NCBI GenBank assembly: GCA_046537975.1 | Contig: JBKHJR010000002.1 | Span: 35,695 to 99,694 of the forward strand | From: Desulfurivibrionaceae bacterium | GTDB lineage: Bacteria > Desulfobacterota > Desulfobulbia > Desulfobulbales > SURF-16 | Length of the DNA: 64,000 nucleotides | Direction: 5' to 3' | Part shown: piece after piece, positions 5,827-63,378 of the stretch | Position numbering within the stretch: the stretch's first letter is position 1 | Layout: the number at the start of each line of letters is the position of its first letter | The notes under the pieces: model-generated | What the model saw: the letters and a program-made list of their open reading frames with translations, nothing else | Databases searched by the model: none | What the model was told of the DNA's origin: nothing | Made by a program: the position numbers and the translations under genes

Positions 5827-5847
5827 CCTGAAACCTGAAAACTGAAC
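5827..5847 (+). repeat. Short heptad array (CCTGAAA CCTGAAA ACTGAAC) abutting the NUDIX start codon
   Basis: Three 7-nt units read directly in the trkA-NUDIX spacer. They resemble the GAAACUU/AACUNNN units that precede start codons in the larger elements. Confidence 0.4.
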
Positions 5848-29288: not shown

Positions 29289-30387
29289 GCTGATAGACTG
29301 GTTACGTCTGTATCTTACACCAGGTCTCGGTATCCGCAGCTGGCAGAAGCTGCTCAGCGCTTTTGATGGGCCCCGGGAGATCCTGGAGGTCTCCCGGGAC
29401 GAGTTAAGGCGCCTGGCCCCGGGAATTAACAGGGAGGTCCTTGAAGCCGTTCAGGGGCAGGAGCAGCGGGCGGCTGCGGAAGTCGAGCTGGACAAGGCTC
29501 TCAGGGCCGGAATAAGAATAATCACCATAAAGGATTCCCTTTACCCTGAATATCTCCGCCACATCTTTGATCCACCCCCGGTTCTTTATCTCAAAGGCAA
29601 TCCCGATCTCTTAAACAGCAGGTGCATAGGGGTGGTGGGAGCCCGGTCCGCTACTGTTTACGGCCAGAGAGTGGCGGCTGACCTGGCCAGACGCCTGTCC
29701 CTCCAGGATTTCACCATAGTCAGCGGCATGGCTCTGGGCGTAGATGCTTCCGCCCATGAAGGAGCCCTGAAGGGGTCCGGAAAGACAGTGGCGGTACTGG
29801 GCAGCGGCCTTGATGTGGTCTATCCCCGGCAGAATCAACACCTCTATGACAGAATTGCCGAACAGGGAGCGGTTATCAGCGAGTGCCCTTTGGGGTCTCA
29901 ACCGGAACCTTTCCGTTTTCCGGCCCGGAACCGGCTGATTAGCGGCATCTCCCTCGGGGTAATGGTTGTGGAGGCGGCCCGCAGGTCTGGTTCGCTGATA
30001 ACCGCCAGGTGTGCCATGGAACAGGGAAGAGAGGTGTTTGCCACTCCCGGAAGAATTGATTCCCGGAACAGTGAAGGGGCCCACCGCCTGGTAAAAGAGG
30101 GGGCCAAGCTTGTTCATACCGTGGAAGACATCACGGAGGAATTCTCTCCTGCTGAAGGCGTGACCGCCGGGCGGGAACCAGGGCAGGAAGAAAGTCCGCC
30201 TCCCTCTTTAACCAGAGAGGAGGAGAATCTCCTCCCCTTTCTCGACCTCTATCCCCAGAGTTTTGATGAGATTCTGACCAGAACAGGTTTGAGCGCCGCC
30301 AAGCTCAATGAACTCCTCTGCCTTTTAGAATTAAAAGAAATAGTTGAAATTTTACCCGGGAAAATGATACAAAGGCTGTCTGTCTGA
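29281..30387 (+). CDS. dprA: DNA-processing protein DprA (Smf)
   Basis: 368 aa. It has the Rossmann-like core with GSGLDVVYP and a C-terminal winged-helix. The start overlaps the rpoD stop by 8 nt. Confidence 0.9.
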
Positions 30388-30396
30388 AACGGTGGC

Positions 30397-30510
30397 CGGA
30401 GATCGGAAGTCGGAAGTTGGAAGTCGGAGATCAAAAGACAAAAGGAAGAAGACAGAGGTCAGACAACAGCAGCCTAAGTTTTTAATCTTGCACCTTGCAC
30501 CTTGAACCTT
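30397..30510 (+). repeat. Composite heptad element, copy A (dprA-topA spacer)
   Basis: Units in one register from 30397: CGGAGAT CGGAAGT CGGAAGT TGGAAGT CGGAGAT CAAAAGA CAAAAGG AAGAAGA CAGAGGT CAGACAA CAGCAGC CTAAGTT TTTAATC TTGCACC TTGCACC TTGAACC. It begins 10 nt after the dprA stop. It is the reverse-complement homolog of copy F. Confidence 0.9.
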
Positions 30511-30527
30511 AAGCCCTTAAAATATTT

Positions 30528-32795
30528 ATGTCCAAATCATTGATAATTGTCGAATCACCTGCCAAGGCCAGGACCCTCCAGAAATATCTGGGCAGCAGCT
30601 ACGAGGTAAAAGCCTCTGTCGGTCACATCCGTGATCTGCCCGGTAAAGAGATGGGGGTTGATATAGAACACGGTTTTCTGCCCCAATACACAACCATTCC
30701 CGGGAAGGGGAAGATTATTTCGGAAATGAAGAGTGCCGCCAAAAAGGCAGATGCCGTCTATCTGGCCCCTGACCCGGACCGCGAAGGTGAAGCGATCGCC
30801 TGGCATATAGCCGAGGCCATCAAATCCGCCCAGGGCAATATTCACCGGGTCCTTTTCCATGAACTTACCAAAAAGGCGATTATCTCCGCCCTAAATCAGG
30901 CCACGGAGATAGATCAGAATAAATTCGAGGCCCAACAGGCCAGGAGGATTCTGGATCGGCTGGTGGGCTACCAGATCTCCCCCCTCCTGTGGGACAAGGT
31001 GAGACGGGGGCTGAGTGCCGGAAGAGTTCAGTCGGTGGCAGTCCGCATGGTATGTGACCGGGAGCAGGAAATAGAATCGTTCCAGCCCGTGGAATACTGG
31101 TCCATAACCGCCGACCTCGAAGGAAGCAGCCCGCCGCCTTTTCAGGCTCAGCTGGAAAAGGTTGCAGGCAAAAAGGTTGATAAAAAAGACAACCGGATAG
31201 ACAGCGAAGAAACGGCCCAGAGGCTGACAGAGGAGATAAGGCAGGCGGAGATCAGGGTTGCTGAAGTAAATAAGAAGGAAAAGAAGCGCAACCCCCAGCC
31301 TCCGTTCATAACCAGTTCCATGCAGATAGAGGCCAGTAACCGGCTGCGCTTTTCCGCTAAAAAGACCATGACCCTGGCCCAGAAACTCTATGAAGGTGTG
31401 GAGATAGGTTCTGAGGGTCTCAGCGGCCTGATAACCTATATGAGGACCGATTCCACCAGGGTAAGCGACGAGGCCCTGAACCAGGCCCGGGATCAGATCC
31501 GCAAAACCTACGGTGATGACTACCTGCCGGCAAAACCCCGGAAATTCAAATCCAAGGATTCAGCCCAGGATGCCCATGAGGCCATACGGCCTACAGATGC
31601 CGGCCGCACTCCGGAAAAAATGGCTCCTTTTCTGGATAAGGATATGCATAAACTGTATACCCTTATCTGGCAGCGTTTCGTGGCCAGCCAGATGGCCCCG
31701 GCCGTGTTTGACCAGACCACCATCATCCTGGAGGCCGGGGAACACACCCTAAAGGCCGTGGGCAGCATACTGCGTTTTCCGGGCTACCTGAGCCTGTACC
31801 AGGATTCTGCCAAATCGGGCAGCGAGCAGGAAGAAAGCCTCCCCGATCTAAGCGAAGGCGAGCAGGTTGAATTGCTGAAACTGGAGCCCAGGCAGCATTT
31901 CACCCAGCCTCCGCCCCGCTATACCGAGGCCTCTCTGGTCAAGGCCCTGGAGGAGAACGGAGTGGGACGGCCCTCTACTTATGCTGCCATCCTCAGCACC
32001 ATCCAGGAAAAAGAGTATGTGGAGCTGCGGGAAAGAAAATTCTTCCCCACCGACCTCGGCAAGGTGGTTAACGATCTTCTGGTCCGTCATTTTCCGGAAA
32101 TCATGGATATCGATTTTACCGCTTCCATGGAGAGCAAGCTGGATGATGTGGAAGAGGGGGAGCTGGACTGGCAGGAACTGTTAAAAGTTTTTTATACCCC
32201 CTTTCGCCAGACCCTGGAAAAAGCCAAGGAGGAGATGGAGTCGGTCAAGGGCAAGTCCGTTCCCACGGACATCAAGTGTGAGGAATGCGGCGGGACCATG
32301 GTTATCAAGTGGGGAAAGATGGGGGAGTTCCTGGCCTGCGACCAGTATCCGGACTGCCGCAATACCTGTGATTTTGAGAGGGATCAGGAAGGCAGGATAA
32401 TTCCGAAAGAAAAGGAAAAGGAAGAAGAGTCAGAGGAGGTCTGTGAAAAGTGTGGCCGGCAGATGATTTACAAGAAAGGTCGTTACGGCCGGTTTCTGGC
32501 CTGTTCCGGCTATCCCGAGTGTAAAAATATCAGAGCGGAGGGAACCGGGGTCCAATGCCCGGAGGAAAACTGTCCGGGGGAATTAGTAAAAAAAGTTTCT
32601 AAAAAGGGAAAAATATTTTATGCCTGTAACCAGTATCCCAACTGCAGTTATGCCCTGTGGAACAAACCGGTAAATCAGGCCTGCCCGGAATGCGGCTCCC
32701 CGTATCTTATTGAAAAGGAAACCAAAAAACAGGGCCGCCATTTAAGGTGTCCCGACAAAAAATGCGGCTATACCAAAAAGCTGGACGAGGAATAA
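30528..32795 (+). CDS. topA: DNA topoisomerase I
   Basis: 755 aa. Toprim IVESPAKA, active-site region YMRTDS and C-terminal tandem CxxC zinc ribbons. Confidence 0.95.
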   Translation: MSKSLIIVESPAKARTLQKYLGSSYEVKASVGHIRDLPGKEMGVDIEHGFLPQYTTIPGKGKIISEMKSAAKKADAVYLAPDPDREGEAIAWHIAEAIKSAQGNIHRVLFHELTKKAIISALNQATEIDQNKFEAQQARRILDRLVGYQISPLLWDKVRRGLSAGRVQSVAVRMVCDREQEIESFQPVEYWSITADLEGSSPPPFQAQLEKVAGKKVDKKDNRIDSEETAQRLTEEIRQAEIRVAEVNKKEKKRNPQPPFITSSMQIEASNRLRFSAKKTMTLAQKLYEGVEIGSEGLSGLITYMRTDSTRVSDEALNQARDQIRKTYGDDYLPAKPRKFKSKDSAQDAHEAIRPTDAGRTPEKMAPFLDKDMHKLYTLIWQRFVASQMAPAVFDQTTIILEAGEHTLKAVGSILRFPGYLSLYQDSAKSGSEQEESLPDLSEGEQVELLKLEPRQHFTQPPPRYTEASLVKALEENGVGRPSTYAAILSTIQEKEYVELRERKFFPTDLGKVVNDLLVRHFPEIMDIDFTASMESKLDDVEEGELDWQELLKVFYTPFRQTLEKAKEEMESVKGKSVPTDIKCEECGGTMVIKWGKMGEFLACDQYPDCRNTCDFERDQEGRIIPKEKEKEEESEEVCEKCGRQMIYKKGRYGRFLACSGYPECKNIRAEGTGVQCPEENCPGELVKKVSKKGKIFYACNQYPNCSYALWNKPVNQACPECGSPYLIEKETKKQGRHLRCPDKKCGYTKKLDEE

Positions 32796-32801
32796 AAAAC
32801 G

Positions 32802-32817
32802 TGGCCCGGCATTTGCA
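32802..32817 (+). promoter_or_regulatory. Candidate sigma-54 (-24/-12) promoter
   Basis: TGGCCCGGCATTTGCA versus the consensus TGGCACG-N4-TTGCW. GG and GC have the correct 12-nt offset, with one mismatch in the -24 box. It sits 7 nt after the topA stop and about 225 nt upstream of ORF 33041. Confidence 0.5.
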
Positions 32818-33040
32818 AAGTTGTAAGCAGGACCAGTAATTTAAACCGGACCATAATGTTCCGGAGGTACGGTAACCAGTTGAAATTTTAAACGTTTCGC
32901 TTCACCCAGAACCACTAACAAACACTGTGCAATGTTCCTGAATATACATACCAACTGTAAGCATAATCTCTTACATGAAATTTGTCGGTTTTATCAAAAA
33001 GATAAATCAACCCGAAAAGTTCAGTAAAGGAGCTTGAGTT

Positions 33041-35756: not shown

Positions 35757-35912
35757 TACTTAGTGTCCCTCCAGGAAACGGCCCTTTTGCCCGATCTCTG
35801 TGTCACAGCAAAAATAAAAAATGCTCACACATACCCAATATGCTGCGCTTTTTTATTTTCACTGTTCCTTGACCTCGAACAAAAAATCTCGTTTCTGGAT
35901 GGACACTAAGTA
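35757..35912. repeat. 156-bp long imperfect palindrome in the pyrB upstream region (MITE-like or leader RNA structure)
   Basis: The outer arms TACTTAGTGTCCCTCCAGGAAACG (35757-35780) and CGTTTCTGGATGGACACTAAGTA (35890-35912) pair. The inner arms CAGCAAAAATAAAAAATGC (35806-35824) and GCGCTTTTTTATTTTCACTG (35845-35864) also pair. Between the two stems there is roughly a 25x25 nt unpaired interior. Confidence 0.7.
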
Positions 35913-36178
35913 GGATTATTATATCGCTTTTCTCCGGGCCTGAAAATCTGTAAATCAATCCGATCCGTAACCCTTATTCCATAACCCTTATTATATTGAT
36001 ATCTAAAAACTGCAATTAGTAATTGGCTGTTAGCGGTTAGCCGGGCAAATGACCTGATTAAGCCAATGGGTGACTGACTTGCAGTTTACCATACCTGAAG
36101 GTACGTTATGATAAGGTATCTGACTGAATATTCCATTCAGGAAATTTGTGAATCTCCTTAAATGGACTCTACCATGAT

Positions 36179-38927: not shown

Positions 38928-38990
38928 AAAGGTAAAAAGAATGGATATATTCGCCACTTACCTTACCATAACCTACTGGAGGTACGGTAA

Positions 38991-39623
38991 ATGAGTCCCA
39001 GTTCAGGCAAGATACAAGAGCAGATCACCTCTTTTATCGACGACAAGATAGTCCCTTTAGATCTATCCAAGAAAATCGGGATCTGGCTGGCAGCTCTTCT
39101 AATCCCCTGTTTGGCTTTTTATTTTCTGTACTATACCGGTAAAACCGAGGAGATCGAGAAATTAGAGAAGCAGCAATCCCGCCTGGAGAGCGATCTGGCC
39201 AGAGTGAAAAAGAGATCCCGGAAAATAAAAGAGCACAAGGCGGAAATGAAAGAAGTGAAGACCATGTTTGATATGGCTGCCAGGCTGCTTCCGGAGAAAC
39301 AGGAAATACCCTCTCTTCTGACCAGCATATCGGAGATCGGCAGGTCCTCCGGTCTTGATTTCCATTCCTTTACTCCGCAGAAGGAAAGGAAAAAGAGATT
39401 TTATGCCGAGATACCGGTGAATATAAAAGTCCAGTGTTCCTATCACGAAGCCGGAGTATTTCTGGATAAAATCAGCAATCTTGACAGAATAGTGACCGTC
39501 TCGAATCTGAGTATGGGGGGGGCTAAAAATAAGGGAGGAAAAAATAAGGAAGGAAATATGATGCTTAATACGAGTTTCCGGCTGATAACCTACAGATTCC
39601 TGAATTCTTCGGGAAAGAAATAA
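38991..39623 (+). CDS. pilO: Type IV pilus assembly protein PilO
   Basis: 210 aa. Single TM, coiled coil, then a ferredoxin-like C-domain (IPSLLTSISEIGRSSGL...VTVSNLSM). Strong SD GGAGGT. Confidence 0.8.
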   Translation: MSPSSGKIQEQITSFIDDKIVPLDLSKKIGIWLAALLIPCLAFYFLYYTGKTEEIEKLEKQQSRLESDLARVKKRSRKIKEHKAEMKEVKTMFDMAARLLPEKQEIPSLLTSISEIGRSSGLDFHSFTPQKERKKRFYAEIPVNIKVQCSYHEAGVFLDKISNLDRIVTVSNLSMGGAKNKGGKNKEGNMMLNTSFRLITYRFLNSSGKK

Positions 39624-47354: not shown

Positions 47355-47367
47355 ATTATATTAGTTA

Positions 47368-47458
47368 CAAGGTGCAAGGTGCAAGGTTTTTTAAATCTAC
47401 GGCTTAGCCCTCTGCCCTCTGATCTCCGCCCTCCGACTTCCGCCCTCCGACCTCAGTC
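47368..47458 (-). repeat. Composite heptad element, copy B (rsmB-uvrA spacer)
   Basis: Plus-strand units in one register: CAAGGTG CAAGGTG CAAGGTT TTTTAAA TCTACGG CTTAGCC CTCTGCC CTCTGAT CTCCGCC CTCCGAC TTCCGCC CTCCGAC CTCAGTC. The last unit overlaps the rsmB stop codon. It fills almost the whole 98-bp spacer. Confidence 0.9.
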
Positions 47459-48802: not shown

Positions 48803-48876
48803 GATTGGTATTCTTTGTAGTGAAATTATTATGGCTCATCCGGATAATAAGTATCTGAATCCGGGTGATTCAATGT

Positions 48877-48932
48877 CTCTGATCTCCGACCTCCGACCTC
48901 TGACCTCCGACCTCTGACTTCCGATCTCCGAC
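48877..48932 (-). repeat. Heptad array, copy C (pgeF-rsmB spacer)
   Basis: Eight plus-strand units: CTCTGAT CTCCGAC CTCCGAC CTCTGAC CTCCGAC CTCTGAC TTCCGAT CTCCGAC. In the gene sense this reads GUCGGAG-type units starting 6 nt after the pgeF stop. Confidence 0.9.
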
Positions 48933-48937
48933 CGGGG

Positions 48938-55793: not shown

Positions 55794-56600
55794 TCAGGAA
55801 AAATTTTTATCAGATGATCCGTTGTTGCTTTCCATCTGAAGAAGCCGGATGTTCTGAGCCTCATACCTGTCTGAATCACGGTTATTGGGGGCTATCTGAA
55901 ATTCAAAAATATTAGAGGGGTTGTGAAAGACCTGTGGTGAGCTTTCAAAGGGAGATTGGGAACAATGGAAAAAAAGACTGTCACTTTCCAGTCCCAGGGC
56001 GGTCAATCTGTAATAACGCATAAATCCAAAGCCCCGATCCGGCTTATAGCTGATCACTGTGCCCCGGTACCATTCTCTGGGATCATGATCACCCTGAATC
56101 GGTAAAAGGCCGGGAACCAGGAAGCCGGAAATAAAGAAATCGGCGGTCTCTCTTAAACTCGAGCTGACATTATTGAAACCGATGACCTCAACCCGGCAAC
56201 CTCTGTTCTGGATGGCCGTTACCAGACGGATAAAGTCTCCATCCCCGGTTACCAGGATAATCCGGTCGAGGTTGCGGGACTGGAGGAGGGCGTCAATGGC
56301 CAGGTCCATATCAGCGTTGGCTTTGGTGGTAACAACCCCCTCTTCATCAACATAATGCTGAACATATTTTTTAATGACCTTAAAACCGTGATTACGGACG
56401 ATGTTATGGTAATTATGAACCTTCTGCCGGTATTCGCCATCGTTTTCAGTCCTTTCCCGGTCTTCAGCCAGATAGGAGTTGGCCCTTAAGAGCTGCGAGT
56501 TCCCTCCATTGGCCAGATCAACCAGGACATCATAACGCATGCCGTATCCTCCGCTTAGCCGGATGTTTTCTGCGTCAACGTATATACCGGTTTTAAACAT
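55794..56600 (-). CDS. NYN/LabA-like ribonuclease domain fused to a cold-shock (CSD/OB) domain
   Basis: 268 aa. NYN motifs GIYVDAENI, ADMDLAIDAL and ILVTGDGDFIRLV. The C-terminal YRGTVISYKPDRGFGFM...LFFHCSQ...FEFQI matches the cold-shock domain pattern. Confidence 0.8.
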   Translation of the reverse strand: MFKTGIYVDAENIRLSGGYGMRYDVLVDLANGGNSQLLRANSYLAEDRERTENDGEYRQKVHNYHNIVRNHGFKVIKKYVQHYVDEEGVVTTKANADMDLAIDALLQSRNLDRIILVTGDGDFIRLVTAIQNRGCRVEVIGFNNVSSSLRETADFFISGFLVPGLLPIQGDHDPREWYRGTVISYKPDRGFGFMRYYRLTALGLESDSLFFHCSQSPFESSPQVFHNPSNIFEFQIAPNNRDSDRYEAQNIRLLQMESNNGSSDKNFS

Positions 56601-56605
56601 AAGAG

Positions 56606-56633
56606 TTCGGAGATCAGGAGTCGGAGATCAGAA
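56606..56633 (+). repeat. Heptad array, copy E1 (5' leader of the NYN-CSD gene, C/U-rich in the gene sense)
   Basis: TTCGGAG ATCAGGA GTCGGAG ATCAGAA on the plus strand (a 14-nt unit twice). It lies 6-33 nt upstream of the minus-strand ATG at 56600. Confidence 0.8.
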
Positions 56634-56784: not shown

Positions 56785-56833
56785 CTCTGTCCTCAGACTT
56801 CAGACTTCAGACTTCAGACTTTAGACCTCTGCC
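56785..56833 (-). repeat. Heptad array, copy E2 (immediately downstream of guaA)
   Basis: Plus-strand units CTCTGTC CTCAGAC TTCAGAC TTCAGAC TTCAGAC TTTAGAC CTCTGCC. In the gene sense these are GUCUGAA/GUCUGAG units starting about 14 nt after the guaA stop. Confidence 0.9.
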
Positions 56834-58397: not shown

Positions 58398-58400
58398 GGA

Positions 58401-58558
58401 CAGTTTCAAGTTTCAAGTTTCAAGTTTCAAGTTTCAAGGCACAAGGCACAAGGTACAAGGTATAAGGTGCAAGATTAAAGGCTTAGGCTGCTGTTGTCTG
58501 ACCTCTGTCTTCTGTCTTTTGACCTCCGACCTCCGACCTCCGACCTCCGACTTCCGGG
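58401..58558 (-). repeat. Composite heptad element, copy F: fills the whole guaB-guaA spacer
   Basis: 22 consecutive plus-strand units in a single register from 58407: CAAGTTT x4, CAAGGCA x2, CAAGGTA x2, TAAGGTG, CAAGATT, AAAGGCT, TAGGCTG, CTGTTGT, CTGACCT, CTGTCTT x2, TTGACCT, CCGACCT x3, CCGACTT, CCGGGGC. It ends 2 nt before the guaB stop. Confidence 0.95.
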
Positions 58559-58560
58559 GC

Positions 58561-61820: not shown

Positions 61821-61884
61821 TAAGGTTCAAGTTTCAAGTTTCGGGGTGCGGTATGATGGTTTGTCTGACACCTCTTGCTCTTAG
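61821..61884 (-). repeat. Short/degenerate heptad element, copy G (hisS-aspS spacer)
   Basis: TAAGGTT CAAGTTT CAAGTTT, then GGTTTGTCTGACACCTCTTGCTCTT, which resembles the copy F middle TGTTGTCTGACCTCTGTCTTCT. It lacks the CTCCGAC array. The aspS start keeps a normal SD (AGGAG). Confidence 0.6.
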
Positions 61885-63176: not shown

Positions 63177-63315
63177 GAATCCTCCATCATTAAGTTGTAT
63201 TTAAAATAAATCTGATTAAAATAGCCTGTTCCGGGGGGCAAGTCAAGGGAATGATATATGATGAATTTTGAATTGTGATTCAGTAATTGAAGGAAATTGC
63301 CCGATCAGTTACTTT

Positions 63316-63378
63316 GAGGTCAGAGGTCAGAGGTCAGAGGTCAGAGGTTCATAACTTGTAACTCACAACTAATATACT
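63316..63378 (+). repeat. Heptad array, copy H (serS 5' leader), in register with the start codon
   Basis: GAGGTCA x4, GAGGTTC, ATAACTT, GTAACTC, ACAACTA, ATATACT, then ATG at 63379: nine units exactly. Confidence 0.9.

Follow-up and report, generated by a model that had tools for sequence, protein, structure and literature searches.

In bacteria, the heptamer is the commonest unit of long simple sequence repeats (SSRs); such repeats are distributed sporadically among lineages, and polymerase slippage in steps of 7 nt has been proposed for them (Mrazek et al. 2007, as presented in PMC4679880 and PMC4692102). The heptamers GGGNATC and GGGGA(C/T)T of Xanthomonas and Nostoc are located at most 50 bp from stop codons, on the sense strand and between co-oriented ORFs, and are without known function (Rehm et al. 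2015, PMC4692102). TAACTGA repeats, described for marine Beggiatoaceae, some Cyanobacteria and Bacteroidetes, occur as 2 to 6 forward heptamers just before the starts of housekeeping genes, which usually have no recognisable ribosome binding site; related 7-mers interrupt the sets (MacGregor 2015, PMC4679880). In H. influenzae, the (ATCTTTC)n repeat in the 5'-UTR of hmw1A and hmw2A forms a stable hairpin with a G-rich arm, which is cleaved by RNase III, and drives adhesin phase variation (PMC12721329). Geobacter metallireducens possesses intergenic multicopy heptanucleotides (GGACCGG x4 and MTYCTGA x5), for which a regulatory role was proposed (PMC2700814). The reason for heptamer repeats and for their strand and position rules around genes is unexplained to date.

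The window analysed here, i.e. the whole stretch of 64,000 nucleotides, originates from a member of the Desulfobulbales. Its GuaA is 100% identical to a protein from a metagenome-assembled 'Desulfurivibrionaceae bacterium' at NCBI. The 31-mer GAAGACAGAGGTCAGACAACAGCAGCCTAAG was found exactly twice in it, at 30448-30478 on the plus strand and at 58482-58512 on the minus strand, where shuffles lead one to expect no such match. The perfect inverted match of 31 nt described in the earlier note proved to be one base longer, since 30447-30478 (+) is the reverse complement of 58482-58513 (maximal exact match 32 nt). The two copies lie in the dprA-topA and the guaB-guaA spacer, respectively, between which ungapped homology extends over 112 nt with 85% identity (30404-30515 and 58445-58556). 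When the coding strands are compared, the central approximately 80 nt differ by 5 substitutions (A/G, TT/CC, GC/AT) and one indel of 7 nt, in agreement with the earlier description. An ungapped alignment of the same stretch costs about 6 additional mismatches, so that the one-heptad indel is the more parsimonious solution. Both copies have the same orientation relative to their genes, too, which were assigned by Pfam as dprA followed by topA and guaB followed by guaA.

An assembly artefact does not account for the match, as contigs assembled independently from short reads of this strain (Logan SRR21542049) reproduce both sides of the first copy. One contig agrees fully with the window on the dprA side and ends inside the 32-mer; a second one does so on the topA side and begins at the 32-mer. 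If this assembly was built with k = 31, as Logan assemblies are, the observed contig breaks are those expected at a true repeat. An exact match of 32 nt cannot result from convergence; over the central 80 to 112 nt, the two spacers are therefore homologous copies of each other. The spacers are best explained as probable paralogous copies of a heptameric long SSR tract.

In each of the two spacers, 7-nt units follow one another in phase from stop codon to start codon and make up one tract of about 19 to 22 heptads. The identity at lag 7 amounts to 0.59 in the dprA-topA spacer and 0.74 in the guaB-guaA spacer, compared to about 0.25 at other lags. The units change gradually along the tract, from GGAGGTC-type units over CAGAGGT, CAGACAA, CAGCAGC and CTAAGCC to CTTGCAC/CTTGAAA-type units before the ATG. 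Three parts can be distinguished in this order: a purine-rich array after the stop codon (A array), a core of degenerate heptads containing the exact match, and a second array before the ATG (B array). The core consists of degenerate heptads itself, and the 7-nt indel corresponds to one unit.

The dprA-topA spacer (30388-30527, +, about 19 heptads) is delimited by the dprA stop codon at 30385-30387 and the topA ATG at 30528. Its A array (30390-30431: CGGTGGC, CGGAGAT, CGGAAGT, CGGAAGT, TGGAAGT, CGGAGAT) is purine-rich and Shine-Dalgarno-like and begins 3 nt past the stop codon, the first unit being preceded by AA. The core (30432-30487: CAAAAGA, CAAAAGG, AAGAAGA, CAGAGGT, CAGACAA, CAGCAGC, CTAAGTT, TTTAATC) is one heptad longer than that of the second copy and includes the exact match. 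The B array (30488-30522: TTGCACC, TTGCACC, TTGAACC, TTAAGCC, CTTAAAA) stops 5 nt (TATTT) short of the topA ATG and is not accompanied by a Shine-Dalgarno sequence.

The guaB-guaA spacer (58398-58560, -, 22 heptads) extends from the guaB stop codon at 58563-58561 to the guaA ATG at 58397-58395, a start position backed by GuaA homologues of 516 amino acids beginning there. After GCCC, the A array (58522-58556) consists of CGGAAGT followed by four CGGAGGT units. It is succeeded by the core (58473-58521: CAAAAGA, CAGAAGA, CAGAGGT, CAGACAA, CAGCAGC, CTAAGCC, TTTAATC), which holds the exact match. The B array (58403-58472: TTGCACC, TTATACC, TTGTACC, TTGTGCC, TTGTGCC and five TTGAAAC units) ends 5 nt (TGTCC) ahead of the ATG. 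The differing numbers of flanking units, the 7-nt indel and a phase which is not broken over 19 to 22 units fit the earlier proposal that change occurs in whole-heptad steps.

Comparison with relatives shows that the tracts are young. In metagenome-assembled genomes whose TopA is 84-86% identical, the dprA-topA spacer has a length of 61 or 52 nt and an unrelated sequence without a tract, and 12-13 kb of syntenic DNA in these relatives are almost free of heptad arrays. The guaB-guaA spacer of a relative with 91% GuaA identity comprises 91 nt and contains neither tract nor A array; ahead of its ATG there are just two CTGAACC units. One stretch of this spacer weakly resembles the core (GGGCAGCAGAATAGCAGCCT, p about 0.08). 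Overall, the likeness of the window spacers to the empty spacers of relatives is marginal (p 0.03-0.09) and gives no direction of copying. Since the tract is missing in relatives with 84-91% protein identity, in which the gene order across both spacers is intact, it originated or arrived recently and without rearrangement. An inversion between the inverted copies was rejected, too, because the tract-free relatives exhibit the identical gene order across both spacers.

The arrays themselves differ between relatives. At the orthologous serS site a different unit has been expanded: the leader of the 91% relative (GCA_041641775.1) contains (CAGCTTA)x12.7 (TGTAAGC on the other strand) directly upstream of the ATG, while the window has GAGGTCA x4.7. 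A 97% relative has kept the last approximately 45 nt before the topA ATG ungapped with 3 substitutions, and carries CCCTTGA units at the place of the core of the window. As regards change in heptad steps, this comparison can be read either way. In another relative (L002) a single TCGGAAG unit is located directly after the dprA stop codon, a plausible seed for local expansion as far as its position suggests. Thus unit number and sequence differ between close relatives, as is characteristic of heptameric long SSRs, and array turnover is fast. The Logan short-read contigs of the source organism and of the 97% relative break inside heptad tracts, at gene boundaries.

From the expansion of different units at orthologous sites (serS) and the single seed unit after dprA in L002 it follows that the outer arrays look locally expanded and that the middle alone was copied. 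The earlier view of the arrays as copies of one element rather than local expansions therefore needs to be divided: the central 80 to 112 nt are indeed homologous, but a discrete element is not apparent and the outer arrays seem to have expanded locally.

Heptad arrays are not confined to the two spacers. In a scan for tandem periods across the window, period 7 alone was enriched, with 7 arrays of at least 3 units compared to none in shuffles, and no arrays of at least 3 units were detected for periods 5, 6 and 8-12. The head-to-tail arrangement of 7-nt units beyond chance length is that of heptameric long SSRs. Altogether, 12 arrays are present in 8 intergenic regions of the window. The purine-rich A arrays (GGAGGTC-type) begin 3-20 nt past stop codons on the coding strand, which is the position described for heptamers by Rehm et al. 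(2015). All six B arrays (CTTGCAC/CTTGAAA/CCTGAAA-type) are oriented forward and finish a few nt ahead of start codons. Of the 12 arrays, 11 run in the direction of the neighbouring gene (p=0.006). The sole exception consists of inverse A-type units at 56603-56633, directly before the ATG of a gene encoding a NYN-domain protein (55794-56600, -), where the gene strand reads CTGATCTCCGACTCCTGATCTCCGAAC.

The rsmB-uvrA spacer (47355-47452, -) is a more distant relative of the two tracts. It has the unit order in common with them (CGGAGGG, CGGAAGT, CGGAGGG, CGGAGAT, CAGAGGG, CAGAGGG, CTAAGCC and further on TTTAAAAAA), with an A/T-rich stretch before the three CCTTGCA-type units which precede the ATG. 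Other arrays stand alone. An A-type array of about 8 units (GGAGGTC/AGAGGTC/GGAGATC; 48876-48933, -) is located upstream of rsmB, 4 nt past the stop codon of a Cu-oxidase_4 gene, and has neither core nor B array. About 20 nt past the guaA stop codon there is an A-like array of about 5 TGAAGTC units (56789-56826, -). The interval between the GAGGTCA x4.7 array (63313-63348, +) and the serS ATG (63379) is filled by degenerate heptads of the AACTTGT type. B-type units are represented by about 3 CTTGAAA units upstream of aspS (61822-61842, -), where a Shine-Dalgarno sequence is kept between array and ATG, and by a B-like array of about 3 CCTGAAA units (5827-5846, +), which stops 6 nt short of the start codon (ATG) of a NUDIX gene.

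Five of the six genes behind B arrays have no Shine-Dalgarno sequence, as holds for most genes of the window; the difference from the background (14/44) is not significant (p=0.65). In the window, a GGAG, GAGG or AGGA motif is found 4-18 nt upstream of only about 15 of 48 gene starts in crude calls; these crude start calls suggest a low use of Shine-Dalgarno sequences in the source organism.

Further intergenic features were observed in the window. The topA-flgB spacer (32796-33040) comprises 245 nt, compared to 57 nt in an 86% relative. A stretch of 31 nt within it (32845-32875) is 81% identical to 38960-38990, just upstream of a gene starting at 38991; both finish in GGAGGTACGGTAA, and no small ORF is obvious. 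An intergenic inverted repeat (35757-35794 and 35875-35912) has arms of 38 nt which are 74% complementary and 80 nt apart, and is adjoined by a 14-nt tandem repeat (35964-35992).

Arrays of the A type are widespread. Runs of (TCGGARR)x3 or longer were found in species-representative genomes in at least 120 stretches from many phyla; among the matches listed are Bacteroidota, Verrucomicrobiota, Planctomycetota, Kiritimatiellia, Xanthomonas, Nostoc, several Desulfo- lineages and others. Among these listed matches, crude gene calls place the upstream neighbour on the strand of the array in 45 cases and on the other strand in 27, and 26 of the 45 co-oriented arrays begin no more than 35 nt downstream of a stop codon (hand count on crude ORFs). 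These figures count stop-adjacent placement and not over-representation of the unit. Cross-phylum A arrays often grade into kindred purine units (GGAAGTC to GGAAGAC to AGAAGAC). The full composite of A array to B array is not general among the cross-phylum loci examined. In some other phyla (L039, L098, L122), the reverse complement of an A-type array (CCTCCGA-type) lies no more than about 100 nt behind the array itself; this arrangement, which is absent from the window, would form a long hairpin.

B-type arrays of (CTTGMAM)x3 are widespread in metagenomes, and many of them adjoin an ATG. Thirty-eight of 43 such metagenome arrays situated inside a long ORF are antisense to it. These antisense hits may be coding repeats (GTTCAAG-type) or spurious ORFs running through stop-free repeats; the orientation counts come from a crude ORF caller which opens ORFs at TTG codons inside the arrays.

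An RNA structure, for which compensatory changes had been suggested as a check, found no support: the folds of the whole spacers were no better than those of shuffles (z-scores of +2.3, +1.1 and +0.4 for three spacers), and pairing of the A with the B arm is not common to the copies. Covariation analysis had no power with only 2-3 sequences. A long imperfect hairpin, in which the purine-rich A arm would pair with the pyrimidine-rich B arm and thereby join stop and start codon or create an RNase III site, has a precedent in hmw of H. influenzae (PMC12721329) and is in line with the guaB-guaA copy. There, four GAGGU units are predicted to pair with four ACCUU-type units, and the duplex of the arms reaches -30.5 kcal/mol compared to -23.8 kcal/mol for arm-wise shuffles (p 0.046). 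In the dprA-topA spacer, however, 99.6% of arm-wise shuffles give a better duplex, and the duplex of the rsmB-uvrA spacer is at chance level. With pairing that beats shuffles in the guaB-guaA copy alone and positive z-scores for whole spacers, we rejected the duplex as a conserved feature and consider the hairpin highly improbable.

A similar picture emerged for a G-quadruplex formed by the repeat on DNA or RNA at the 3' ends of genes, as proposed for the heptamers of Xanthomonas and Nostoc. For the guaB-guaA spacer, a two-tetrad quadruplex is predicted in the (GGAGGUC)4 arm (-21.9 vs -4.6 kcal/mol), and the arrays follow the positional rule of PMC4692102. No quadruplex is predicted for the A arm of the dprA-topA spacer (GGAAGUC/GGAGAUC), though, and the rsmB-uvrA arm gains 1 kcal/mol only; moreover, the units carry G2 runs rather than runs of at least three G. 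As a conserved feature the quadruplex was thus rejected, and we regard this reading as extremely improbable.

Neither spacer contains a sigma-70 promoter or intrinsic terminator consensus on its sense strand. A search against Rfam 15 at gathering and E-value thresholds revealed no relevant family in the spacers; the sole match was a spurious one to a vertebrate lncRNA model (9-12 bits vs a gathering score of 80).

Two clear copies and one more distant relative within 64 kb, all between co-oriented genes, and the empty sites in relatives would also agree with a discrete element between genes, dispersed or mobile in the manner of MITE, REP or Correia elements, with fixed orientation and many more copies elsewhere in the genome. 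Such an element is, however, not recognisable by its ends: within either spacer there are no terminal inverted repeats and no palindromic core, the A and B arms are not complementary, and neither target duplications nor sharp boundaries were detected, the arrays grading into native spacer sequence. The outer parts also occur on their own, as A-type and B-type units form core-free arrays at other spacers of the window and A-type units do so in many phyla. A 22-mer of the core had no match in JGI metagenomes and was found in none of 120 cross-phylum loci, and plasmid and phage searches with the tract gave no match, either. In addition, we know of no transposition route for tracts of direct repeats. 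We therefore think a mobile element very unlikely, and the best reading is that the tract is neither a mobile element nor a structured RNA, promoter or terminator.

The explanation we favour, with moderate confidence, is that heptameric tracts were built by slippage, that the middle was copied between the spacers by non-reciprocal recombination, and that the units were sorted by strand-specific selection on the transcript. Slippage, the mechanism of copying and the nature of selection are what we infer here. Arrays would grow, shrink and diversify by replication slippage in steps of 7 nt together with point mutation, and some of them may have a unit of the native spacer as their starting point. 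Gene conversion or template switching, possibly primed by the GGARRTC and CTTGNNN arrays common to many spacers, would have brought the older, degenerate middle part of one tract into the other spacer. Thereafter, the outer arrays would have gone on changing independently.

The strand and position rule, with Shine-Dalgarno-like purine units after stop codons and G-poor, unstructured units before start codons, may result from selection on the transcript. Repeats rich in GGAGG would be tolerated only where there is no reading frame, and there they may retain ribosomal subunits or capture them again. Weakly structured repeats could be tolerated or favoured in the leaders of starts which often lack a Shine-Dalgarno sequence. 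Any function would then be a modest cis effect on the expression of the downstream cistron. Against this translational part stands the finding that starts without Shine-Dalgarno sequence are at background level behind B arrays (p=0.65). Furthermore, Bacteroidota rarely use Shine-Dalgarno pairing; as A arrays occur in Bacteroidota, too, a reason based on the ribosome cannot be universal.

The strictness of the same rule might point to more than tolerance, namely to a dedicated post-transcriptional module in which A and B arrays are periodic sites for ribosomes or an RNA-binding protein and the number of units tunes the downstream cistron. Ribosome standby or coupling of re-initiation over a long spacer is one variant, an oligomeric RNA-binding protein another. 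Possible binders would be CsrA-like proteins for a GGA motif every 7 nt and S1 or Csp for the G-poor array, and ring proteins such as HutP recognise triplets spaced 7 nt apart. The hexamer GGAGGT is a perfect Shine-Dalgarno sequence, and spacers less structured than shuffles would suit a platform for single-strand binding. The after-stop placement recurs across phyla and in the heptamers of PMC4692102, and B-type arrays adjoin start codons in the window and in many metagenomic contigs, as TAACTGA does (PMC4679880). On the other hand, the tract is missing at the same essential genes in the 84-91% relatives, unit sequences differ between the two copies as well as between orthologous sites, a specific tie to starts without Shine-Dalgarno sequence was not seen, and no candidate binding protein was identified. 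We regard such a module as possible, yet rather unlikely.

A more far-reaching version, which we consider unlikely, takes the stop-to-start tract for an intercistronic device tunable by copy number and read at a periodicity of 7 nt. Terminating ribosomes or a periodic RNA-binding protein would be caught by the GGRRRTC units after the stop codon and passed on by the G-poor units, which are in phase, to a start without Shine-Dalgarno sequence. Through gene conversion primed by the arrays, such modules would spread from operon to operon. Were this device real, the long-unexplained heptamer repeats of bacteria would gain a function. If the tracts are slippage products only, the finding is an ordinary one; even then they matter for assembly, because short-read contigs break at them.

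Under the favoured explanation of slippage-built tracts with a copied middle, part of a heptamer tract can be copied between operons. An array of the GGARRTC type recurs after stop codons in many phyla. The locus is also a compact test case for distinguishing an effect on translation from tolerated slippage, as topA and guaA are easily assayed and the relatives provide natural empty controls.

Among the systems described so far, the long SSRs of Mrazek et al. share the 7-nt unit with the tracts; that work, in the form in which it is presented by later authors, is statistical and does not deal with bipartite stop-to-start tracts or paralogous copies. The Geobacter elements, from a related bacterial group, are intergenic multicopy tandem heptanucleotides as well, but they are built from other units, always in four or five copies, some of them are located inside genes, and no composite tract was described. 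Similar to the hmw repeat of H. influenzae, a heptamer array lies ahead of a start codon, a pyrimidine-rich arm is opposite a G-rich one, and change proceeds in steps of seven. In contrast to hmw, however, pairing is not conserved, and the genes are housekeeping genes.

Like TAACTGA repeats, the B arrays are forward heptamers just before the starts of housekeeping genes. Five of the six starts have no Shine-Dalgarno sequence, at a background rate of such starts which is high as well (p=0.65). Their units (CTTGAAA, CTTGCAC, CCTGAAA) are not TAACTGA, occur in many variants and are coupled to an upstream purine array. The closest likeness is to the heptamers of Xanthomonas and Nostoc (PMC4692102), which are also tandem repeats of GG-purine-purine-purine-TC, vary in length and sequence between close relatives and show no tie to mobile elements or particular gene functions. 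These have runs of three to four G (GGGNATC-type), whereas GGAGGTC, GGAAGTC and GGAGATC have G2 at most, and quadruplex potential here is weak and not common to both copies. Furthermore, the purine array runs in phase into a pyrimidine/A-rich array reaching the next start codon, and duplication of a tract between spacers is documented here. Two published positional classes, purine-rich repeats after stop codons and repeats before start codons, are thereby joined in one in-phase tract. As a bipartite stop-to-start tract with copying between operons, it is a variant within an established class of bacterial heptamers whose function is unexplained.
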